Source: Minisyncoccota bacterium
Lineage (GTDB): Bacteria; Patescibacteriota; Minisyncoccia; Phycocordibacterales; UBA9973
NCBI GenBank assembly: GCA_025453495.1
Contig: JALOQM010000004.1
Coordinates: forward strand, 28,990 to 92,989
Direction: 5' to 3'
DNA length: 64,000 nt
Shown here: in pieces, positions 3,499-32,827 of the stretch
How the letters are laid out: every line of letters begins with the position of its first letter
How positions within the stretch are numbered: the first letter of the stretch is position 1
Notes under the pieces: generated by a model
Told to the model about the DNA's origin: nothing
Databases searched by the model: none
What the model saw: only the letters and a program-made list of their open reading frames with translations
Translations under genes and position numbers: made by a program

Positions 3499-4092
3499 TT
3501 ATTTTCCACTTAGGGGTATGCCAAAGACTACTCCGATTTCCAGTGCCCAAGAGGGGATGACGGGAGAATTTTTAATCCAAAGGAGATTCAATCCCCCACG
3601 AAAGGTCCCACCAATCCAATAGTCATTGTTAACAATCCCACCACAGTTAAGCTGCAAAAAAAGTTTGCCTGTGCTTCCTGTGCCTAATTCACGTGCACTA
3701 GGAAAGGAAGGTCCATAGCCGAAACCAACAACTGATCCGGCAAAACTAATTTTACTTTGGTTTCTAGAACCACCTTCAAAAGGCACTCCGAATCCAACAA
3801 GAAAAAGAGTTGCCGGAGTATTTACCGGGAGCCGATAGGTCGTGTCATAGAGGCGAAAATGTTGACCGCCATTATGCTCAAGACCAATCCTTAAATAATC
3901 ACCAGCTAAACCAAAAGTAACTGCACCACCAATAATTGGGCTGTACGGAAATGCCAGAGGTCCTGACTGATCGACACTCATACCGGTAAATATCGTAGTG
4001 AATACTGTACTTTGCGCTTTGGTCTGCATCGGCGCTACTGCCATACCCATCATCCAGATGGCAACAATGGCTAAAAGGTTTGTTTTTTTCAT
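3499..4092 (-). CDS. Secreted glycine-rich hypothetical protein
   Basis: 197 aa. N-terminal signal peptide MKKTNLLAIVAIWMMGMAVAPMQTKA, Gly/aromatic-rich body. Confidence 0.5.
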   Translation of the reverse strand: MKKTNLLAIVAIWMMGMAVAPMQTKAQSTVFTTIFTGMSVDQSGPLAFPYSPIIGGAVTFGLAGDYLRIGLEHNGGQHFRLYDTTYRLPVNTPATLFLVGFGVPFEGGSRNQSKISFAGSVVGFGYGPSFPSARELGTGSTGKLFLQLNCGGIVNNDYWIGGTFRGGLNLLWIKNSPVIPSWALEIGVVFGIPLSGK

Positions 4093-4249
4093 CGAACTAT
4101 TTTTTTGTTTACTTTTTTGTTTCTTCGTAAATTCCGATTAAAAATTAGCATGAGTATATACTTTTGTCAATATACCGCGATATGAAGATCTAATGCAAAA
4201 AACCAAGGTGTACCCTTGGTTTTTTGCATTATTTTGTATTCCTTAACTA

Positions 4250-6004
4250 TTATTGCTTACACACAAGCTCATTTATCTTTTTTGTTGTTGTGATATAGAC
4301 ATACCCTGTGCCTTCATTGAGCCCCCAAGAGCTAAGCACATCGGCTGTGTATGCTTCTTGAAAACGCTTGACTGCGGCATCAGTTGCAAGACCAAAGAAC
4401 CCTGTTGGTTGTATTGATAAGAAAGAATTTTTTAGCAAGAAGCTCTGTAACTTTGTAACCTCTGGACCTCTCGAACCAAGCCTCATATATGAAGTAAGAT
4501 ATGGTGCGCATGTATCTTGAGGTTCCACATATCCTGGAAGCTCTTTCGGATTTGTCGTAAATCCGCCAGCACCAGTATCAATCGGTGGAGGGGCTATACC
4601 AGTATCAGTTGGAGGTGTGACTAATGCTGGAGCAGATACTCCCTGTGCCATCGAGTCGCTATCTGCAGTAAAGCGAATTGTTTCTGAATTTGTGCCAGAA
4701 AGTCTGTAACCGATACCGGCAACAGTCAATGCGCCGTTAAGCATTTCGCCTTCACGAAGCGCGAGACCGACAAGCGAACCTGGACCATCTTCTCCAATTA
4801 CGACATCATTCATAAAATCGACATCAGTAATGACATAGTCAGTCACTCCAATAGTATTTGTTTTAACCGCTTTTACGACACCTTGTGTTGCACAAGCAGT
4901 TCCACTAACACAGCCCGAGGGACTAGTCGTCCATACAAGTGTATCAGCGACAACATCAGCCACAATTGACGGTGAAGCAACATAATCTAAATTTCCACCA
5001 TTTACACCACAAGTATGTACAGCTCGTAGAGTAAATGATTCATGGTCAGTGGTCGCATTATAAGATGCAAATGCAGGAGAAAAATCAATAACGCCATTAT
5101 CTGCTCTTACCTGAAAACTATTAGGTATAGTGGTAGCACCGCAATGGCTTGGAGAAATAGAGCCGAATTGCAGACTACCAGGAGAGCTACCATCAAGAAC
5201 AAGAGATACGACATCTGAATGATATCTTGTCGCGATATTTCCAAAACTATCATAAGCAGTAACCACGGGCTGTGTAGTCCACACCACACCACTTTGCACA
5301 TCACCATAAACTGGAGTCGGTGTCATGCTTGGTAGTGTAGTGAAACTAAGAGTTACTGCTTGACCTGGAATAATCGTAAAGGCATTATCGATAGCCTTAC
5401 CTGTAGAACCTCCACCCTTACCTGTTGCTGAATCATCAGATACAAATAATTCTTGCCCGATTATCCAAAGCTGAAGATTTCCGTCTTGTGAAGTAAAGCC
5501 ATCACCATCAAAAACAGCAGCAGTTTCAGGGTTGAAAATTATATTAAGAATACTAAAAGAAATTGTGTCTGAAACATCAACAGTACTTCCGTAATTAAAT
5601 GGAGCGGCAAGAGTGAGTTGTATTCTTGTACCTACAACTTCAACCAAAGAAACTTCTCGATCAGTACCATTTATAGAAATAAAACCACCTGAACCAATAT
5701 CTGATTGCACCACTTCTGTTGGATCAGCAATAAATGAACCATCAAGAGTAAATATATTTGGAAAATTAACAATAATCTTGGATGCTGTTCCAGTACTTGT
5801 TGTCGTATAAGATACTTCGTATTGCCCCGGTTCACCGACAATATCATCAGTACCAAGAGTTACTGGAGCGACTGTAGCAGTAGTTATTGATGCTTGCACC
5901 GAGTTCCGCCACACAAATCCACCCACAACAAGAGCAGTGATAATACCTACAATAGTGAGGGTATACACATTGTTGGAAATTTTTTTCTTGAGTATATTCA
6001 ACAT
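4250..6004 (-). CDS. Membrane-anchored cell-surface protein with C-terminal peptidoglycan-binding (PG_binding_1-like) domain
   Basis: 584 aa. N-terminal signal anchor, long Thr/Ser/Gly/Val-rich beta-type body. C-terminus LGSRGPEVTKLQSFLL...GFFGLATDAAVKRFQ matches the PG_binding_1 motif pattern. A terminator hairpin follows at 4195-4228. Confidence 0.6.
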   Translation of the reverse strand: MLNILKKKISNNVYTLTIVGIITALVVGGFVWRNSVQASITTATVAPVTLGTDDIVGEPGQYEVSYTTTSTGTASKIIVNFPNIFTLDGSFIADPTEVVQSDIGSGGFISINGTDREVSLVEVVGTRIQLTLAAPFNYGSTVDVSDTISFSILNIIFNPETAAVFDGDGFTSQDGNLQLWIIGQELFVSDDSATGKGGGSTGKAIDNAFTIIPGQAVTLSFTTLPSMTPTPVYGDVQSGVVWTTQPVVTAYDSFGNIATRYHSDVVSLVLDGSSPGSLQFGSISPSHCGATTIPNSFQVRADNGVIDFSPAFASYNATTDHESFTLRAVHTCGVNGGNLDYVASPSIVADVVADTLVWTTSPSGCVSGTACATQGVVKAVKTNTIGVTDYVITDVDFMNDVVIGEDGPGSLVGLALREGEMLNGALTVAGIGYRLSGTNSETIRFTADSDSMAQGVSAPALVTPPTDTGIAPPPIDTGAGGFTTNPKELPGYVEPQDTCAPYLTSYMRLGSRGPEVTKLQSFLLKNSFLSIQPTGFFGLATDAAVKRFQEAYTADVLSSWGLNEGTGYVYITTTKKINELVCKQ

Positions 6005-19164: not shown

Positions 19165-19590
19165 GTTTTGAGCCAGATAGTTGCTCTTTGATGTATATCA
19201 AAGAGAGGAAAGTCCGAACACATAACGATTCAATTCGTATAGGTAATGGGTAATTCCCATACGGAGCAATCCGCGAGGTGCGAGCAGAGACGCTTGCAAG
19301 CGAAAGTGCGCAAGCGTCCCGACTTCGGTCGGGACGAGTTCTCAAGGTAACTTGAGAGGTGAAACGGCTAAATCCTTACCCGTGTGCAAGGCCGTGTTCC
19401 CCACTACTTTAAACAGTTATATGAATACTCTATGTAGTAATGAAATAAAAATTATCGCATACGCATACTCACATAAGTTTTTAAAGTAGTGGGGAAAGTG
19501 CCGCTTGAGGCCGACGGCAACGTCGGTCCCAGATAAATGACTATCGTCTGGGTAACCAGATACAGAATTCGGCTTATAGGCTCAAAACTA
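19165..19590 (+). ncRNA. rnpB: RNase P RNA (bacterial type A-like)
   Basis: Universally conserved GGAAAGTCCGAACAC near the 5' end and ACAGAATTCGGCTTATAG near the 3' end. P1 pairing gttttgagcc (19165-19174) with ggctcaaaac (19579-19588). Contains an AT-rich extended hairpin insertion (ccccactacttta...taaagtagtgggg, about 19377-19500). Terminator hairpin at 19596-19626. Confidence 0.85.
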
Positions 19591-19595
19591 ACATG

Positions 19596-22614: not shown

Positions 22615-24960
22615 TTAGATTTCACACACACCAGAAACACACGCTAACTCTTTTTTGACTTCTGTCTCATCTGCACGCTCATAAGTAACAATCTTTGAGA
22701 AGTCGATATTTTTTACTCCTTTCAAAAGCTCTTCGTAACGCTTTGCATCAATCGGCTCATATGGCGCAAGTTGGTAAATATGGTTTGAACGAGGAAGGAA
22801 TGAGAGACCGCCGACAATATCCCAGTTCTCATATACCCAATTAGCAACCATGATCCACTCGTCATCACCAACAGAGATTGTTACTGATGGATTGTGTTCG
22901 GTGAAATTCGTCTTCACCACTTTCCAGTGTTCAAGTTGTTCAAGGGCGGTGATATCGTCCTTGAAGATAGCACCCTTTGGAGCTTTGACTGGAAATTCAA
23001 GTACATAGGTCGTTGCCGTATCCATTGCCTGCCCTACTTCTGGATGATATGGGATACCTTGATCTTTGAGCATTTTGAATAGTGCGTCAGTTGCTGAAAT
23101 ACGAATGCGACGAATGTAGTATTGAGCATGACGTGGATGCATGCCTGATGCTGAGTCTACAGTCTGCGAGACAGTGCCTGATGGCTTCACACAGGTGATA
23201 CAAGTTGATGCATTAATACCAAAGCGCTTTGCGTAGAGTTTGTTGACGCGAATTGCTTCTTCCTTGAGCTTTCGAAGTATTTTTGGATCACGAGCTGCTG
23301 TCGAATCCCACTGACCAGTGATAGAGACACCGAGCAATCGTTCTTCATCGCAATTCTTTTTCCATGCTTTTGAGAGGTATGGGAAATTCGTAAGTGTCGA
23401 CTGATAGGTACCAAGAATTGTGGCGATACGAACCTTTTTCATAAGTGTCTTTTCTGTATCATCGGCACGAGCAACAACTTCAGAAAGATTACAAAATTGC
23501 TTTGACTGAAGGAGGATCTCACCGCACGGATTAGTACCAATCCAACCAATACGATCATCGAGAAGATTCACGCGACGCTCAGGAAGCGTTGCCCCGAGAT
23601 TGCTACGATTAAAGATACCGCGCTCACCCGAGCCAGACTTCATAAGTGCAATCCACTCATCCATAAATTCAGTAGTTGAAGGTTTTGTATTGTATACAGC
23701 GGAGTTATTGGCAAGCATGCGCTGCCCTTCAGAATTCCAAAACTGACCTGTCTTTGCGTCACGCATTGCTTCATCATCTAGATCAGAAAGTGAGATAAGT
23801 GCACTTCTGCGGACACCACCAGCAACGACACATTCGCCAATTTTGCAGATAATGTCATGCACATCAATATTTGAGAGACGCTTACCTTGTTTGCGCAATA
23901 TTCTATCGCGTGCGAATGCAAGCACTTGGCGAAGTGGCTCAGGACCTGAACTCTTGCCTCCCATTGTCTTCAAACGTGCACCTGCTGGGCGAAGCTTAGA
24001 GAAATCAAATTCAACATCATTGCCTGCAAACCAAGTTTCCAAACCGTCAATAAGCGCGTCCGTCCACCCTTCTTTACTATCACCAACGACGTGAACTTTT
24101 GCTTTCTTACCTTTTTGTTTAGCGATCTGCGGTAGTGCCTGGACATTCTGACTCTCAACAGAAAAGCCAACCCCCGTACCACACATAGAGACATACATAA
24201 TTTCTGCGATGTCGCGAAGCGATGCAGGTGCAGTGTAAGAGCAGTTATATGCACAGACATTGGTGCGCTCAGCCGCAGGACCTGCAAACTGTACAAGTCG
24301 CATCGATGGCATAGCCTCCTGACGAAGTATTGCCTCACGTATTTCTTTATACTCAGCGGAAGTCAACTTGTTACCGAGATTCTTCTTCATGAAGTCTACA
24401 TATCTGTCGATCGTTTCAATCCACGTTTCGCGACGACCTTCGGATTCAATCCATTTTGAGTATGTACGGTAGTAGACGAGTTCTGCAAGCGGATTTCTAA
24501 AGTATTTCTTGCTTTCTGCTACCAACTTTTTGACATGCGGTGGTACTTCCCCGAATTCCTCACGCGCTTTGGTGCGTTCTTGACGATAGAGGATATAGCT
24601 CTTGGCTGTCTCTGGTAAACCCTCTTTAATAAGGGCTTTTTCTACCAAATCTTGGATAATCTCAACTGTCGGGACGAAATTGTAGTCCTGGATAGTCTTC
24701 TTAATCTCAAGTAGATCTTGGTGTGCTCGTTCAGCAACATGCTCTGGAGGCATGGCACTCTCCCCAACTACTTTCATTGCTTTGCCAATCGCTCGAGAAA
24801 TACGGTCGATATCAAATGGCACAAGACGACCGTCACGCTTTCTTACTTGGTTGATACCAGTGAAAGAATTCTTTGCCGATGTCTGTGATCGGGGTCCTGG
24901 TTTCACTGAAGACCGGGACTTTGGTGTGGGTTTTTTGCGCATAGTGAGACTATTGTACAT
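22615..24960 (-). CDS. nrdJ: Ribonucleotide reductase, class II (adenosylcobalamin-dependent, NrdJ-like) with N-terminal ATP-cone
   Basis: 781 aa. ATP-cone-like N-terminus (VRKRDGRLVPFDIDRISRAI), active-site block NPCGEI, length and motif order typical of monomeric/dimeric class II RNR. Confidence 0.85.
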   Translation of the reverse strand: MYNSLTMRKKPTPKSRSSVKPGPRSQTSAKNSFTGINQVRKRDGRLVPFDIDRISRAIGKAMKVVGESAMPPEHVAERAHQDLLEIKKTIQDYNFVPTVEIIQDLVEKALIKEGLPETAKSYILYRQERTKAREEFGEVPPHVKKLVAESKKYFRNPLAELVYYRTYSKWIESEGRRETWIETIDRYVDFMKKNLGNKLTSAEYKEIREAILRQEAMPSMRLVQFAGPAAERTNVCAYNCSYTAPASLRDIAEIMYVSMCGTGVGFSVESQNVQALPQIAKQKGKKAKVHVVGDSKEGWTDALIDGLETWFAGNDVEFDFSKLRPAGARLKTMGGKSSGPEPLRQVLAFARDRILRKQGKRLSNIDVHDIICKIGECVVAGGVRRSALISLSDLDDEAMRDAKTGQFWNSEGQRMLANNSAVYNTKPSTTEFMDEWIALMKSGSGERGIFNRSNLGATLPERRVNLLDDRIGWIGTNPCGEILLQSKQFCNLSEVVARADDTEKTLMKKVRIATILGTYQSTLTNFPYLSKAWKKNCDEERLLGVSITGQWDSTAARDPKILRKLKEEAIRVNKLYAKRFGINASTCITCVKPSGTVSQTVDSASGMHPRHAQYYIRRIRISATDALFKMLKDQGIPYHPEVGQAMDTATTYVLEFPVKAPKGAIFKDDITALEQLEHWKVVKTNFTEHNPSVTISVGDDEWIMVANWVYENWDIVGGLSFLPRSNHIYQLAPYEPIDAKRYEELLKGVKNIDFSKIVTYERADETEVKKELACVSGVCEI

Positions 24961-27228: not shown

Positions 27229-29481
27229 TTATTTCGCGATAGTAGCCGCTTCGTCAAATTTAATCGAGAGTAACTTTGACGCACCGTCTGCGCCGACAGT
27301 CACGCCATAGAGAACATTTGCACGTGACATCGTCTCACGATTGTGAGTGATAACGATCAGCTGAGAGTACTTTGAGAGATTCTCAAGCATGTCGCCATAT
27401 TTACGGCTATTTGCCTCATCAAGCGCGGCATCGGTCTCATCAAGTACGAGAAATGGTGGCGGATTGACCTGAGAGATCGCAAAGAGAAGTGCAATCGAGG
27501 TAAGCGAACGCTCGCCACCTGAGAGCATCGTCAGTTCTTTAACCTTTTTGTGTGGAAGTGAGATATGGATAGCGATACCGCTTTCAAATTCTTCTTCCTC
27601 TGGCATTTCTGTAATCTCCTCATCATCCACGACCCGCTTTTTAGGAAGAACAACTGCAAGAGACGCCTGACCACCGCCAAACATAAGTGCAAAGAAATTC
27701 TCAAACTGTGTATTTATCCGCTCAAGACCCTGGCGAAACTCAGCATCAAGATGTTCTTTGAGATCACGAATAAGGCTTTCAAGTGAAGCGAGGCTTTGTT
27801 TGAGGTCGTCGATTTCTTTGGCAAGGAATTCACTACGTTCTTTGACTTCGGTGTACTCTTTTATGATGTCGTCTCCCCCCCCCGCGCCAATGTCCTCAAG
27901 CTTGATTTTGATGCGCTCAATCGCTCGTTTGCGATCCTCTTGCATCTGACGTGATTCAGTTATATCTGCATGCGGTATTGAGAATTCTTTGTAGGCCAAA
28001 ATTTCTCGACCAATAAAGCCTTCCCCTTCTTGTATTTCCTCTATCAACTGATCATAGAGACGTTTATTGGAGTCTTCTTTTGCTTCTGTAAGCGCGAGTG
28101 CATTCTCGACTTCTTTCCGCGCTAATATACGCTCAAAGCGTACCTGATCAGCCTGACGCTCAAGTGCTTTTTCTTCTACGATGGCGACTTTGAGGCTATC
28201 GCTTTTCTCGCGTAACGCAGTTTCTTCGAGTACAAGTTTCTCTACTTCGCCAAGAAGTCCTGCATGTGTCTCGCGCATCGCCAGAAGCTCTGCAGCATTT
28301 CCTGCATCTGTAACCGTTTCTGGTTGTGCTTTCTTGTCGACAAATGTCGCAATCATCGTCCGTATCCGTACTGCAATGCCACGTATTTCCTCGATATCTG
28401 CTTTTGAAGAAAGTTCGTCAATCGCGCTTGCCACACTTGCAAGTAATGCATCCACTTCAGCAGAACGTATCATTCGATTCTCAGTTGGCATTTCTTCCTT
28501 ACGACGTGCTCGTTTCTCTTCAAGCTCGATCATACCTTCAATGCGGCCGAGCTTGCGCGATACCTCATCTTTCAAAGCACCGATCGCTCTTGCTTTTTCT
28601 TCAGTCTCAGCAAGTGCACGCTCGCTTGCACTGCGCTCACGGACTATTTCTGTCTGTTCTTCTACTGAAGCTCGTATAGTATCAAGCTTTGCCAAAAGCT
28701 CTGCCTTTTCTGTCTCAATTTTCTGTCGCTCGTCAGAAATATAGAGCTCTTCTTTCTTGAGATACTCAGTATACAAGCCTCTAAGCTCTTGGCGCATACT
28801 TTCTGCTTTTTCGTATTTCTCTACTTGCTTCTTGAGAAAAGTAAGATGTGGCAGTATTTCACGGCGAGCTGATTCTGCTTCTTTGATATTCTCTTCAGTC
28901 TTCCCAAGCTTACGCTCGCTCTCACGAATACGGTACTGATACACCTTAAGACCAAGCGCGTCTTCGATCATCGCACGACGATCTTTTGCAGATGCATTCA
29001 AGATTCGATCTGCTTCACCCTGAGAAATGATATGGTGACCAGAGGCACCTATGTTTACTGACGCAAGAAGTTCAAGTACGTCTTTCAAGCGCACCTCAGA
29101 ACCGTTGATGAGATAGCGATTCACGCCATCTGGATAAACTTCACGAGAAATACTCACTTCATCAAAATCAAGCTTCGTTGCGTCACCTCCTGCACTAGTC
29201 GGCATTGAGAAGACACGCTTTGTATTATCAAAGACAATCGTCACACCAGCGCGTGACTGCTTCGGAAGTGTCTTTGAGCCTTTGAAGATGAGATCGGCGC
29301 CGAGTTTACCACGAAGTGACTTCATCGACTGCTCACCAAGTACAAAACGGATCGATTCGACGACGTTTGATTTGCCAGAACCATTTGGTCCCACCACAGC
29401 GGTAACTGGACTTGTAAACAAAAGCTCGCTCTTCTTGGCGAATGACTTGAATCCTATAATTTCTAGGCGTTTTAGTTGCAT
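27229..29481 (-). CDS. smc: SMC-family chromosome-partition ATPase, short form (750 aa)
   Basis: N-terminal Walker A GPNGSGKSN, long coiled-coil (E/K/R/L-rich), C-terminal LSGGERSLTSIALLFA and Walker B FLVLDETDAALD. Only about two-thirds the usual SMC length. Confidence 0.8.
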   Translation of the reverse strand: MQLKRLEIIGFKSFAKKSELLFTSPVTAVVGPNGSGKSNVVESIRFVLGEQSMKSLRGKLGADLIFKGSKTLPKQSRAGVTIVFDNTKRVFSMPTSAGGDATKLDFDEVSISREVYPDGVNRYLINGSEVRLKDVLELLASVNIGASGHHIISQGEADRILNASAKDRRAMIEDALGLKVYQYRIRESERKLGKTEENIKEAESARREILPHLTFLKKQVEKYEKAESMRQELRGLYTEYLKKEELYISDERQKIETEKAELLAKLDTIRASVEEQTEIVRERSASERALAETEEKARAIGALKDEVSRKLGRIEGMIELEEKRARRKEEMPTENRMIRSAEVDALLASVASAIDELSSKADIEEIRGIAVRIRTMIATFVDKKAQPETVTDAGNAAELLAMRETHAGLLGEVEKLVLEETALREKSDSLKVAIVEEKALERQADQVRFERILARKEVENALALTEAKEDSNKRLYDQLIEEIQEGEGFIGREILAYKEFSIPHADITESRQMQEDRKRAIERIKIKLEDIGAGGGDDIIKEYTEVKERSEFLAKEIDDLKQSLASLESLIRDLKEHLDAEFRQGLERINTQFENFFALMFGGGQASLAVVLPKKRVVDDEEITEMPEEEEFESGIAIHISLPHKKVKELTMLSGGERSLTSIALLFAISQVNPPPFLVLDETDAALDEANSRKYGDMLENLSKYSQLIVITHNRETMSRANVLYGVTVGADGASKLLSIKFDEAATIAK

Positions 29482-29966
29482 AAATACGCTTTATTGTAGC
29501 GTTTTTAGATAAAAGCTGATACTTGACTTTTAGTTATAAATACGACATAAAGTGGACGTAGCACATCATAATAAAATATCACCCTTCAAATATAACTCTA
29601 ATGAGACACCTCCTGATACTCCTGCTCATCTTCTCTGCAACAACCGCGTTCGCACAGAACCAGAAAACCATGCGCGTTGAAGAAGAAGCCTTCGTTATCA
29701 AAGAAATCCGGATCGCAACGAGTTGCTGAGATACCGCAACTGCGGTGACGAACGAACTTTGGTACAACGGCAACCAGCTCAACCTTTCCACCCGTTTCCA
29801 GTCCTACCCTGCACACGCTATCGCAGTAAGCAAAATGCAGTTCGTGATTATCGACGGTGTCCGTGAACTTGAAGTGACATGCACTGATCCGCTCGGCACG
29901 CACGTATTCTACTTTCTGAAACAAAACGTTGCGTACTTGCGGATAGGCTGAAAATCAATTTGAAGG

Positions 29967-29998
29967 AAAAGTCCCGCTCACCGAGCGGGACTTTTTCA
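29967..29998. terminator. Bidirectional terminator hairpin
   Basis: aaaagtcccgctcaccgagcgggacttttt seen directly. Lies about 115 nt 3' of rnc (minus strand). Confidence 0.55.
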
Positions 29999-30113
29999 TT
30001 TTCACTTAGTGAGCGAGAATGTGTTTTTGAAAAGCCTTGCAGAGCGCCTGGTGCGAGCAGAGAATTTTTCAACAGAAAAATATTATGCTTTTCAAAAACA
30101 TATTGAGTAGCTC

Positions 30114-30809
30114 TTAATCAAGCCACCCCTTCTTCAGAAGCGCCTCGCGTGCCGCTTCCTGTTCCGCTTCCTGTTTGCTCTTCCCTTTTCCTTCTGCAAT
30201 CATATCAAGGCCGAAATAGATACCGATTTTGAAATGTTTATCATGATCAGGACCAGTTTCAGCAAGTACTTTGTATGATGGTGTGACTCCTACGTATTCT
30301 TGCGCTTTTTCTTGCACGAGACTTTTTGCATCACGATAGAGTTTCTTGGCGACAATCTCGTCAAGCTTACCAAAGAGCGCGCGAGCGATGAAATTCTCGG
30401 CGACAGAATAGCCTTGATCGAGATATACCGCGCCGACAAATGCCTCAAAAGTATTGGCAAGGATATACTGACGCGCCTTGCCACCATCTTTTGATTCACC
30501 TTTTGAGAGAAGCAAGTACTCATTCATACCAAGCGTGTCTGCTGATTCGGCAAGGGTGATTGCATTGACGAGTGCGCTTCGGTATGCGGTAAGCTCACCC
30601 TCATTGTGCTCTGGATAGCGATTATAGAGATAGCGTGTGACGACAAGCTCAAGCACCGCATCACCGAGAAATTCAAGTCGCTCATTGTGCGCGAGACCTG
30701 ACTTCGGATTTTCATTGATATAGGAACGATGGATAAATGCTTGCGTAAGCAATTTTTTGTCAGAAAACATGACACCAACCTTTTTTTCAAATTGTGAGAA
30801 ATCTATCAT
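30114..30809 (-). CDS. rnc: Ribonuclease III
   Basis: First true ATG at 30807-30809 (the ORF-track start is a TTG). RNase III signature ERLEFLGDAVLELVV, C-terminal dsRBD. Confidence 0.9.
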   Translation of the reverse strand: MIDFSQFEKKVGVMFSDKKLLTQAFIHRSYINENPKSGLAHNERLEFLGDAVLELVVTRYLYNRYPEHNEGELTAYRSALVNAITLAESADTLGMNEYLLLSKGESKDGGKARQYILANTFEAFVGAVYLDQGYSVAENFIARALFGKLDEIVAKKLYRDAKSLVQEKAQEYVGVTPSYKVLAETGPDHDKHFKIGIYFGLDMIAEGKGKSKQEAEQEAAREALLKKGWLD

Positions 30810-30897
30810 AAACAAGAAAGATCCAGGTGGTAAAGGAGGAAGAGTATTCTCTCTTTTTCATCTGTATTCTTATGTAAAACTTATAAAATCGACGCGA

Positions 30898-31806
30898 TTA
30901 GTTGCCTTTTGCAAGAAGCGCTACACCTTTGGTAATGACTGGCAACATATCGTCGTACATTTTAAGCTCGGTGATATCGGCGAGTTTAAACCAGTGTGCA
31001 TCATCGAGTCCTCCTGAATCATCAAGGGTTAACTCACCATATTTCGCTTCGGCAAGGAAGAAAGATACTTTTTTCAGAGTTTTGCCTTTCTCTGGATGAG
31101 ATGCGACATATTCGTTGCCACCGAGCTTGTCTTTGACTTCTACAGTAAGACCAATCTCTTGCTTAACTTTACGGATCACGCCAGCTTCTTCCTCTTCTCC
31201 TTCCTCGAGCTTACCTTTGGAAAGGGTCCAACGACCAAAGACATCATGCACAAGAGCAAGGAGTATTTCTCCATTCTTATAAGCATAGACAACAGCGCCG
31301 ACAAGCGTCTCAACAGGAAGTTTTGAGATATCGACAGGCTCAGCTGTCTTTTTCTTTTTGCTTACTTCTTCTTTGCCAGGCTCGCCAAGTTCTTTGTAGA
31401 CAGCACCAAGTACACCATTGACGAATTTGCCTGAATTTTCTCCACCAAATGTCTTTGCAAGCTCAATAGCTTCGTTAATAGCAACCTTTGGTGGTACTTC
31501 AGTTCTGTTACCAAAAAGAAGCTCAGCAAGTCCAAGACGTAAGATATTGCGATCTACAGAAGAGATTTTATCAATCGGCCAGTCAGGAGCGGCTTTTTCT
31601 ATAACGTCATCGATAATCTTGCCTTTTTTGACGACGAGATCAATGAGACCTTGCATAAAAGCTTGATCATCAAGACCAGGGCCGAATTCTTTTATATTGC
31701 GAGCAAGGATTGCCGCCACCTCTTCAGAGGACGCTTTTTTGTTATTAAAATCCCACTCAAAGAGCGTCTGTAAAACAATTGACCGTGAGAGGTGTCTGTT
31801 TGCCAT
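30898..31806 (-). CDS. nusB: NusB (transcription antitermination factor) fused to a C-terminal NUDIX hydrolase domain
   Basis: 302 aa single ORF. Residues about 1-140 carry NusB blocks (RSIVLQTLFEWDF; AINEAIELAKTFGGENSGKFVNGVLGAV). Residues about 170-302 carry a Nudix box GKLEEGEEEEAGVIRKVKQEIGL (G-x5-E-x7-R-E-x2-E-x-G). Confidence 0.75.
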   Translation of the reverse strand: MANRHLSRSIVLQTLFEWDFNNKKASSEEVAAILARNIKEFGPGLDDQAFMQGLIDLVVKKGKIIDDVIEKAAPDWPIDKISSVDRNILRLGLAELLFGNRTEVPPKVAINEAIELAKTFGGENSGKFVNGVLGAVYKELGEPGKEEVSKKKKTAEPVDISKLPVETLVGAVVYAYKNGEILLALVHDVFGRWTLSKGKLEEGEEEEAGVIRKVKQEIGLTVEVKDKLGGNEYVASHPEKGKTLKKVSFFLAEAKYGELTLDDSGGLDDAHWFKLADITELKMYDDMLPVITKGVALLAKGN

Positions 31807-31833: not shown

Positions 31834-32055
31834 TTATTTTGCGCTTGTTTTCTTTGCTTTTGCTTGACTCTTCTCTACCTTGGCAAGTTTGTTCATGACA
31901 TTCCTGCCTTTGTAGAAGCCACAATACTTGCAGATCGTGTGGTTCAGATTTTTGGCACCACAATTTTCACATGTAGTCATCAAAGTTGCCTTGATGGCGT
32001 GGTGTGAGCGGCGATTTGCCGTGTGGGCTCTTGTATGTCTCATTCGTACTACCAT
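31834..32055 (-). CDS. rpmF: 50S ribosomal protein L32
   Basis: Start at MVVRMRHTRAHTANRRSHHA (ATG at 32053-32055). L32 signature (RRSHHA...C-x2-C...C-x2-C zinc ribbon). Confidence 0.85.
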   Translation of the reverse strand: MVVRMRHTRAHTANRRSHHAIKATLMTTCENCGAKNLNHTICKYCGFYKGRNVMNKLAKVEKSQAKAKKTSAK

Positions 32056-32154
32056 AGCGGGGAGTATAGCGTATTTAGCTAAAAAATACAAGATTCTAAT
32101 AGAATTCTCCAAACTAAAGAACTACTAGTCTTTCAAATGCTTTTTTTATTTTTG

Positions 32155-32227
32155 AGCCAATGGTCGGGATTGAACCGACGGCCCCCGCTTTACGAAAGCG
32201 GTGCTCTACCAACTGAGCTACATTGGC
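32155..32227 (-). tRNA. tRNA-Thr (anticodon CGT)
   Basis: Cloverleaf folded by hand: acceptor GCCAATG/CATTGGC, D-arm GCTC-AGTTGGTA-GAGC, anticodon stem CCGCT/AGCGG with loop TTCGTAA, T-arm GTCGG-TTCAATC-CCGAC. No encoded CCA. Confidence 0.85.
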
Positions 32228-32308: not shown

Positions 32309-32827
32309 TTAACAGGAATAGTAAGCAAAGAAGTCACCTGCAAGAGACTGATCAATAGGTATTTCCCCTGAATCAGTCACTTTTCCTTTCTCCACCATAA
32401 GATATGGTACAACAAGACAACTGGTTGTGCTTGTTTTGAGAAAAAAGGTTCCAGCAAAGATGATCCTTCCAGACCAATTACTTGGTACTGTTTCGGGATT
32501 ATCTTTGTAAAAATCTCTGACATTAACATTTGCCACACATGATTCCTCCTTACATTTAAAAAAAACAAGCACTTCATCAAGTGTTATCGCTAATATTTCA
32601 TCCCTAGATAACAGCATGATTTTTTTAGGACTACACCGAAGGCGCCTTGTTTTTACATGCAATGTAGGCGCATTAATACAGCCATCGGGAATTTTAGGTG
32701 GTAAATGGAGATCAATCAATTTGACTTCATTTATTGGAACTGCAACAACAGTCATAAAAAAGAACTTATTTAAAGGTGAAAAGTTTGGTTTCAGCCTTGA
32801 ATATGAAAAACAATTCATATTCGCCAC
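32309..32827 (-). CDS. Hypothetical protein
   Basis: 172 aa ORF (GTG start in the ORF track; internal ATGs possible). Terminator-like hairpin at about 32255-32295. Confidence 0.35.
   Translation of the reverse strand: MANMNCFSYSRLKPNFSPLNKFFFMTVVAVPINEVKLIDLHLPPKIPDGCINAPTLHVKTRRLRCSPKKIMLLSRDEILAITLDEVLVFFKCKEESCVANVNVRDFYKDNPETVPSNWSGRIIFAGTFFLKTSTTSCLVVPYLMVEKGKVTDSGEIPIDQSLAGDFFAYYSC

Follow-up and report, generated by a model that had tools for sequence, protein, structure and literature searches.

NusB is a universal and well-studied component of rRNA transcription and maturation in bacteria and is normally a bare protein of 140 amino acids (aa). In Escherichia coli, nusB and rnc, the gene for RNase III, interact genetically, and Nus factors have been modeled as tethering and looping BoxA RNA to the elongating RNA polymerase (RNAP), which promotes folding of the 16S leader-trailer helix that serves as the RNase III substrate (PMC4807359). 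SuhB, a protein with an enzyme fold, assists the Nus factors in rRNA maturation and has been proposed to bridge the NusB/E-BoxA complex and RNAP (PMC4807359). Here we describe a 64-kb stretch of contig JALOQM010000004.1 from a Minisyncoccota bacterium (referred to as the window), in which the nusB gene continues in frame into a Nudix-fold domain (nusB::nudix).

Nudix domains with degenerate catalytic motifs are used as effector sensors in regulators of the NrtR type. The NUDT9-H domain of human TRPM2, whose box reads RILRQE, binds ADP-ribose but has no catalytic activity. NUDT9 itself is inactive when its box is changed to RILGEE, in which only the first Glu is lost, and the TRPM2 orthologues of invertebrates, which have canonical boxes, have remained enzymes (PMC6461439; PMC4974056). 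CF Im25, a subunit of the eukaryotic pre-mRNA 3′-processing machinery, has a Nudix box without two of its glutamates and binds diadenosine tetraphosphate (Ap4A; Kd, 2.4 µM) and ATP with no hydrolysis (PMC2425470). The searchable literature, in which we included a comprehensive 2017 review of the Nudix clan, gave no account of a NusB-Nudix protein. The second domain is hidden because databases annotate the fusion proteins simply as “transcription antitermination factor NusB”; a protein 100% identical to that of the window (P0001) is labeled [quoted passage not shown]

The gene is one uninterrupted open reading frame (ORF) of 302 aa at 30898..31806, as given in the ORF list, with an ATG start and an end that includes the stop codon. 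An earlier reading of these letters, made without database searches (the sequence-only reading), gave the same length and coordinates, to which we add the correction that the ORF lies on the minus strand. That reading also described, in a single frame, a complete NusB followed by a linker and a Nudix domain, and domain searches with Pfam and NCBIfam models bear this out. Pfam places NusB at residues 7 to 138 (E = 4.9e−33) and NUDIX at residues 169 to 289 (E = 7.1e−15), and the reading frame between them is open, with neither a stop nor a frameshift. PF01029 (NusB; 114.8 bits versus a cutoff of 23.1), PF00293 (Nudix; 55.6 versus 21.1), and the NCBIfam nusB equivalog TIGR01951 (122.5 bits versus a curated cutoff of 88.35) were all passed, and the scores of the NCBIfam RsmB, MutT, RppH, and NudC models were all far under their cutoffs. 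In sequence searches of the PDB, residues 3 to 149 matched NusB chains of Aquifex, Thermotoga, and E. coli (E = 1e−19 to 1e−14, with 2jr0, 3r2c, and 1tzt at ~1e−19), and residues 169 to 299 matched Nudix enzymes, with the Aquifex Ap4A hydrolase 3i7u at the top. The gene product is a genuine member of the NusB equivalog family and is the NusB of this organism.

The fusion has an ancient origin, and Paceibacteria-type Patescibacteria, a large clade of the Candidate Phyla Radiation (CPR), have it as their standard NusB. When one genome per GTDB species was scanned with patterns derived from the Nudix half, relatives were found encoded in at least 547 species-level Patescibacteria (Paceibacteria) genomes, with carriers named Nomura-, Yonath-, Kaiser-, and Wolfebacteria, Paceibacterota, and Minisyncoccia. 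Both Pfam domains are present in all of the best 120 homologues (65 to 100% identity, 297 to 316 aa). The architecture had been called unusual, which is correct relative to model bacteria only; within this CPR clade, it is the rule.

In a metagenome-assembled genome, an assembly or frameshift error that merges two genes is an a priori possibility, and the sequence-only reading had recognized that such an error would be fatal to its proposal. Among 80 inspected loci from different species-level genomes, one (L045) has NusB (3590-3997) and the Nudix part (4208-4492) in separate ORFs; this is probably a local frameshift or sequencing error, and it could be a genuine split. The other 79 loci encode NusB and Nudix as a single ORF with the linker conserved in frame. 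Furthermore, the identical protein is on record from independent NCBI, JGI, and Logan assemblies, and the same architecture recurs in independent NCBI, JGI, ENA, and Logan assemblies. An artefact is refuted by these independent assemblies and single-ORF loci, and we regard its probability as negligible.

The gene order L32-NusB::Nudix-RNase III-SMC is found in essentially all 80 loci. L32 lies directly upstream of the fusion in nearly all of them, and rnc follows it in 79 of the 79 loci whose contig extends beyond (the contig of L018 ends just past the fusion gene). The distant locus L081, whose Nudix domain is only 28% identical to that of the window, retains L32 upstream and rnc downstream, and both the fusion and its neighborhood must be old because the same gene order recurs at this level of divergence. 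Many of the 80 loci (L001 to L080) were deposited as “uncultured Candidatus Saccharibacteria bacterium,” and one (L064) was deposited as “Burkholderiales bacterium”; with a Paceibacteria-type fusion and synteny, these are probably mislabeled or misbinned. One further protein (P0231, 577 aa) has NusB at 317 to 417 and Nudix at 423 to 545, with almost no linker and an extra N-terminal region of ~300 aa that has no Pfam match.

An AlphaFold2 (AF2) model of the full-length protein, built from the 120-sequence alignment, has two confident domains, with a mean predicted local distance difference test score (pLDDT) of 85.6 and an overall predicted template modeling score (pTM) of 0.54. The N-terminal part contains the seven helices of NusB (residues 4-20, 27-41, 48-60, 62-72, 83-98, 106-121, and 123-140; pLDDT mostly >85), and the C-terminal part is a beta-grasp/alpha Nudix fold. 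No fixed packing between the domains is predicted, because linker residues 143 to 156 have a pLDDT of <50 and the pTM is 0.54, and the ~25-aa linker that joins NusB to Nudix is predicted to be flexible. This linker is well kept in close relatives (GEPGKEE.SKKKK..EPVDI.KLPVE) and ranges from 13 to 47 aa, of mixed charge, in deep relatives.

A separate AF2 model of residues 141 to 302 (pLDDT, 84; pTM, 0.76) was searched with Foldseek, and the top match was again the Aquifex Ap4A hydrolase 3i7u (E = 5.6e−12; target-normalized TM score, 0.92; root mean square deviation, 1.7 Å). Further matches were the mycobacterial MutT1/Rv2985 diadenosine polyphosphate (ApnA) hydrolase, the NrtR Nudix domain (E = 2.5e−10), the Thermus Ndx1 Ap6A hydrolase, the Ap4A hydrolases of Caenorhabditis elegans and human, CT771, BdRppH (3ees; E = 2.9e−8), and NudC. 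The sequence profile of the domain matches Ap4A hydrolases and yeast Dcp2. Taken together, the structure and profile matches place the domain in the nucleoside 5′-polyphosphate (ApnA/cap) branch of the Nudix clan.

The Nudix box of the window protein, which had been read as intact, is degenerate. Where the consensus is GX5EX7REUXEEXGU, the protein has G198-x5-E204-x7-R212-K213-V214-K215-Q216-E217-I-G219-L220. The REUXEE core reads RKVKQE, with the first Glu changed to Lys and the second changed to Gln, such that two of the three REUXEE glutamates are replaced. Both replacements were confirmed at the codon level on the minus strand (aaa, Lys, at 31168-31170; caa, Gln, at 31159-31161). The string cited in support of an intact box, GKLEEGEEEEAGVIRKVKQEIGL, fits G-x5-E-x7-R and the final E-x-G-L but not the core REUXEE, and the complete box with three REUXEE glutamates by which the superfamily is recognized is absent from the window protein. 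Loss of the catalytic glutamates, which the sequence-only reading had named as the other finding that would undo its proposal, is therefore partial: K213 and Q216 have replaced two of them, and E204 and E217 remain.

Alignment to the C. elegans Ap4A hydrolase extends this pattern beyond the box. The box glutamates E52, E55, and E56 correspond to K213, Q216, and E217, and E103, which we take to be the downstream acidic catalytic or metal-binding residue, corresponds to G266. Residue K36 aligns with K197, the cluster K79/K81/K83 aligns with K240/K242/K245, Y121 aligns with Y284, and Y76, at position +17 from the box, aligns with H237. A Tyr or Phe at +17, stacking on adenine, is typical of Nudix Ap4A hydrolases (PMC2425470).

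Erosion of the catalytic residues runs through the whole family of fused proteins. In the 120 closest homologues, position 213 is Glu in 66, Lys in 27, Arg in 18, and Thr in 5; position 216 is Glu in 103 and Lys in 12; and position 217 is Glu in 118. The canonical pattern R-E..E-E is present in 55 of these 120, and the family consensus box reads REIKEEIGL. At species level, R-E..E-E is found in only 32 of 79 loci; of the remainder, 35 retain two glutamates and 12 retain a single one. In a deeper set of 37 NusB-carrying representatives, taken from clusters at 50% identity, Glu is found at position 213 in only 8, at 216 in 19, and at 217 in 32, whereas the 23 closest stand-alone Nudix proteins (~140 aa) have Glu at these positions in 22, 22, and 23 cases, respectively. 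Nearly all fused proteins (243 of 245) have Gly at position 266, where 13 of the 23 stand-alone relatives have Glu. The +17 aromatic residue is replaced by His in 15 of the 37 deep representatives only.

The number of changes at each position was estimated by parsimony, as minimum state changes (Fitch) on a neighbor-joining tree of 234 full-length fused proteins from which the catalytic columns had been masked. By this crude count, the box glutamates changed at least 29 (E213), 34 (E216), 18 (E204), and 6 (E217) times, versus 0 (W193), 1 (K197), 3 (Y233), 3 (Y284), and 3 (D188) changes at the putative nucleotide-contact residues, and canonical and degenerate boxes are interleaved on the tree. 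The domain as a whole is well conserved: mean pairwise identity in the close family is 0.745 for Nudix versus 0.81 for NusB, and the mean frequency of the top residue in the deep set is 0.48 versus 0.53. These values indicate that the Nudix domain is not decaying and that purifying selection constrains it about as strongly as it does NusB. Judged from the alignments, selection clearly appears to keep the fold and the pocket-type residues that align with the phosphate- and base-contact residues of Ap4A hydrolases, but not the metal-binding and catalytic glutamates. That the fusion is real, contains a true NusB and an ApnA-type Nudix fold with a degenerate box, and is distributed and syntenic across the clade is nearly certain.

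The sequence-only reading had favored an active bifunctional enzyme, and in such a model an RppH-like or ApnA/Np4A-cap hydrolase would be delivered by NusB to BoxA-bearing nascent rRNA, where conversion of the leader 5′-triphosphate or cap to a 5′-monophosphate would trigger leader decay after RNase III cleavage. The fold and profile, nearest those of ApnA hydrolases, MutT1, Dcp2, and BdRppH, are consistent with this, as are the canonical consensus box, the retention, in most members, of E217 and E204, the conserved D268 nearby, and the adjacency of rnc, which fits an RNA-processing theme. However, the window protein has K213 and Q216, and the downstream Glu equivalent is Gly almost throughout the family. 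Over the clade, the two core glutamates have been changed again and again while binding-type residues were not, and stand-alone relatives have retained their glutamates. In addition, the RppH equivalog scores 21.9 bits versus a cutoff of 118, and the RILGEE form of NUDT9, with only the first Glu lost, is inactive. An active enzyme is therefore a rather unlikely explanation. For the window gene, RKVKQE and G266 make the earlier proposal of a coupling between antitermination and cap or nucleotide hydrolysis unlikely, and across the fusion family hydrolysis would be at best optional.

The same eroded residues could be expected of a purely structural scaffold, in which the Nudix fold is a protein-protein module with no small-molecule or RNA-end ligand and, like SuhB, bridges NusB/S10-BoxA to RNAP, NusA, or NusG. 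SuhB is itself an enzyme-fold protein for which such a bridge has been proposed (PMC4807359). Seven residues conserved in the fused clade but not in stand-alone relatives (H187, N231, P238, Y249, F273, L281, and D286) could form an interaction surface. However, the best-conserved residues are those common to canonical stand-alone relatives and align with nucleotide contacts (K197/K36, K245/K83, and Y284/Y121), and AF2 predicts no packing of the domain against NusB. We consider a scaffold without a ligand improbable, and argue for a retained ligand pocket because the best-conserved residues align with the nucleotide contacts of Ap4A hydrolases.

Our tentative proposal, to which we give slightly less than even weight, is that the fused domain is a tethered nucleoside 5′-polyphosphate-binding module in NusB-dependent rRNA synthesis and maturation. 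The Nudix domain would act mainly as a pseudo- or semi-enzyme carried on NusB. Its ligand would be either a free nucleotide (ApnA or a nucleoside triphosphate) or an RNA 5′ end, in the latter case the 5′-triphosphate or Np4-capped end of the nascent pre-rRNA leader held by NusB/S10 at BoxA. Binding would modulate or stabilize the NusB-dependent rRNA transcription and maturation complex, and this complex would pass the leader-trailer helix on to RNase III. The functional link between nusB and rnc in E. coli is matched by their invariant adjacency (nusB::nudix-rnc) in Paceibacteria. In the window genome, the module is most probably nonhydrolytic, because its box is RKVKQE and position 266 is Gly; in the ~40% of the family whose box is canonical, some hydrolytic activity may have been kept as an accessory function, by analogy with the TRPM2 series.

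A more specific form of this proposal is conceivable, although rather unlikely: a pseudo-Nudix sensor or clamp for an Ap4A-type alarmone, or for the 5′-triphosphate or Np4-capped end of the leader, would gate or stabilize BoxA-NusB-S10 and thereby couple rRNA transcription and RNase III-dependent maturation to nucleotide or 5′-end status. The module might also replace factors such as SuhB in minimal CPR genomes. The broader idea of the sequence-only reading, that the fusion ties NusB to nucleotide or RNA 5′-end chemistry, is plausible as binding rather than catalysis.

Several observations weigh against a binding module. Nudix subfamilies vary in their general-base residue, and the TRPM2/NUDT9 precedent may not transfer. 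All four box glutamates occur together in 94 of 245 fused proteins (~38%), and E217 is retained in ~90 to 98% of fused proteins. D268, two residues past the lost Glu at 266, is conserved in 216 of 245 and could conceivably substitute for it, and an altered but functional active site is possible on these alignments. The tree and Fitch counts are approximate, and the adenine-stacking Tyr or Phe of Ap4A hydrolases at +17 is His in the window protein. Finally, a generic RNA-binding signal from charge was considered and is unsupported, as the Nudix domain is acidic (pI ~5.4) and the linker is roughly neutral.

A further alternative is a functionally uncoupled fusion. CPR genomes are compact, fusions of neighboring genes occur, and stand-alone Nudix relatives with 30 to 44% identity to the fused domain exist; a neighboring housekeeping gene (for an ApnA hydrolase or a MutT-like protein) could have been fused to nusB during genome streamlining, with the halves remaining independent. 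However, a housekeeping hydrolase would be expected to retain its catalytic glutamates, as the stand-alone relatives do. Fusion and synteny persist to 28% domain identity and in at least 547 species, with 1 split in 80 loci, and the linker is strongly conserved in the close family. Such an uncoupled fusion is quite improbable.

Two candidates for an adjacent ancestral Nudix gene were rejected. P0128 proved to be a fragment truncated by the end of its contig, and rnc lies downstream of it. P0141 (150 aa; L082, 5001-5453) is a genuinely stand-alone Nudix protein that has a canonical box and 40% identity to the fused domain, but its gene lies among those for an integrase and a DNA methylase and a faint Phage_rep_O gene, in surroundings that resemble a mobile element or prophage. 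A further candidate stand-alone Nudix (P0143) is encoded on a contig of 695 bp. When viral contigs were scanned with the family patterns, no relative of the domain was detected. In P0213 (379 aa), Sigma70_r4 and DnaA_C-type helix-turn-helix (HTH) domains are joined to a Nudix domain 40% identical to the fused one, and its box (...LRKTREEIGL) lacks the first REUXEE Glu, the same first-Glu loss as in the fused domain. The same Nudix subfamily therefore occurs in another DNA-binding or regulatory architecture.

Features of the fusion gene and its neighbors are listed in Table 1.

Table 1. Domains of the nusB::nudix gene and neighboring features, in window coordinates
Feature	Coordinates	Strand	Basis and remarks
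nusB::nudix, whole ORF	30898..31806	−	302 aa plus stop; ORF list, Pfam NusB and NUDIX
NusB domain, residues 1-140, seven helices	31387..31806	−	PF01029, TIGR01951, PDB chains, AF2 model
Linker, residues 141-168 (GEPGKEEVSKKKKTAEPVDISKLPVETL)	31303..31386	−	AF2 pLDDT, homologue alignment
Nudix-fold domain, residues 169-302	30901..31302	−	PF00293, AF2 model, Foldseek
Degenerate Nudix box, residues 198-220	31147..31215	−	Read from sequence, homologue column statistics
rpmF (ribosomal protein L32)	31834..32112	−	27 nt upstream of the fusion; PF01783, E = 7e−15
rnc (RNase III)	30114..30815	−	82 nt downstream of the fusion; Ribonuclease_3 and dsrm domains
tRNA-Thr (CGU)	32154..32227	−	Upstream of rpmF; ARAGORN and Rfam
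smc	27229..29481	−	SMC_N, E = 6e−65; last member of the conserved gene order

The minus-strand order in the window is tRNA-Thr(CGU), rpmF, nusB::nudix, rnc, a gap of ~630 bp, and smc. The listed TTG start of rpmF is probably too far upstream. No terminator-like site was found on the minus strand between nusB::nudix and rnc. Beyond the fusion, six-frame hidden Markov model, phmmer, and regular-expression searches of the 64-kb window found neither a second NusB nor a second Nudix gene. The window has no rRNA operon, and a BoxA consensus search of it gave 8 matches at ≤2 mismatches versus 8.9 expected by chance.

The gap between rnc and smc (29482-30113) is absent from most related loci, in which the two genes abut. 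On the plus strand, it contains a short ORF with a signal peptide-like start (ATG near 29601; MRHLLILLLIFSATTAFAQ...) that stops after ~42 codons and seems to resume in another frame as ORF 29745..29951; together these may be a frameshifted gene for a small secreted protein, convergent with rnc. A bidirectional terminator-like hairpin with a 15-bp stem (29965..29997) lies at the end of the gap ORF. Rfam matches in the gap are weak, under gathering scores, and mostly to amino acid operon leader models over the hairpin, and are probably due to chance. Elsewhere in the window, a 172-aa ORF (32309-32827, minus strand) between an M3 oligopeptidase gene and the tRNA-Thr has no Pfam match at E ≤ 0.001, a class A bacterial RNase P RNA is found at 19165-19592 (plus strand; 148.8 bits), and a class II (B12-dependent) ribonucleotide reductase with an N-terminal ATP-cone is encoded at 22615-24960 (minus strand).

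A major lineage of ultrasmall, host-dependent bacteria has thus retained a Nudix appendage on NusB over deep time, with the pocket residues kept and the catalytic residues not. This conservation of a pocket rather than of catalysis points to an unrecognized input, a nucleotide or an RNA 5′ end, into ribosome biogenesis. If the domain is a nucleotide or 5′-end sensor, it would give the Nus machinery a regulatory input that no model bacterium is known to have. The fused proteins also form a natural evolutionary series of transitions from Nudix enzyme to pseudoenzyme, comparable to that of TRPM2.

Compared with stand-alone NusB (E. coli, the Aquifex aeolicus NusB-NusE-BoxA complex 3R2C, and Thermotoga 1TZT), the fusion protein has the full-length 140-aa NusB with its seven helices and a highly similar C-terminal motif (KVAINEAIELAK.FG.E.S.KFVNGVL), but differs by an extra 160 aa (linker and Nudix fold), and its gene lies between rpmF (upstream) and rnc (downstream). 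The added domain is matched best, in structure and in profile, by ApnA hydrolases (3I7U aq_158, 1KTG of C. elegans, 1VC8 Ndx1 of Thermus thermophilus, and MutT1/Rv2985), and shares with them W-T-x-x-K-G at the entry to the box, the Lys cluster that follows beta-strand 5, and the C-terminal Tyr (Y284/Y121). It differs from them in RKVKQE, in His at +17, in Gly at the E103 position, and in being attached to NusB. The window protein is accordingly placed by its profile score and predicted fold in the Nudix fold superfamily but is not filed as a Nudix hydrolase or an Ap4A hydrolase, because it lacks the complete box, the +17 aromatic residue, and the downstream Glu. RppH and BdRppH, which act on RNA 5′ ends, are similar in their Nudix fold and ApnA hydrolase-like ancestry, whereas the RppH model NF001936 matches the fusion protein over residues 177 to 220 only, below its cutoff, and the catalytic glutamates of the fused domain are incomplete.

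The closest parallels for the state of the domain are noncatalytic Nudix modules (NUDT9-H, CF Im25/NUDT21, and the NrtR effector domain), in which the fold is kept, box glutamates are lost, and the module is part of a regulatory or RNA-processing machine. The match to TRPM2 NUDT9-H holds position by position, as RKVKQE and RILRQE have both lost the first Glu, changed the second to Gln, and kept the third. The fused domain differs from these modules in having no sequence-level orthology to them, a NusB partner, and a Glu loss that is polymorphic rather than fixed, and ligand binding is putative here. NrtR combines its effector Nudix with a winged-helix DNA-binding domain, whereas the fusion protein has no HTH domain by Pfam and matches NrtR in structure only, which is a functional resemblance and not membership. 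SuhB of E. coli, with a phosphatase-type enzyme fold, likewise acts together with NusB/NusE-BoxA during rRNA maturation and is tied genetically to rnc, but it is a stand-alone protein whose fold (inositol monophosphatase) is unrelated, and functional equivalence would be by analogy only. The closest architectural analogue is the 16S rRNA methyltransferase RsmB/Sun, in which a NusB-like N-terminal domain precedes an enzyme-fold domain acting on rRNA. RsmB models (TIGR00563/NF011494) match only residues 7 to 171 of the fusion protein (48.2 bits versus a cutoff of 319), whose N-terminal domain is a true NusB rather than an RsmB paralogue and whose C-terminal domain is Nudix, with no methyltransferase domain. 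Among these systems, the NusB-Nudix protein stands as a real and ancient variant of NusB that occurs clade-wide and carries a Nudix module with eroded catalytic residues.

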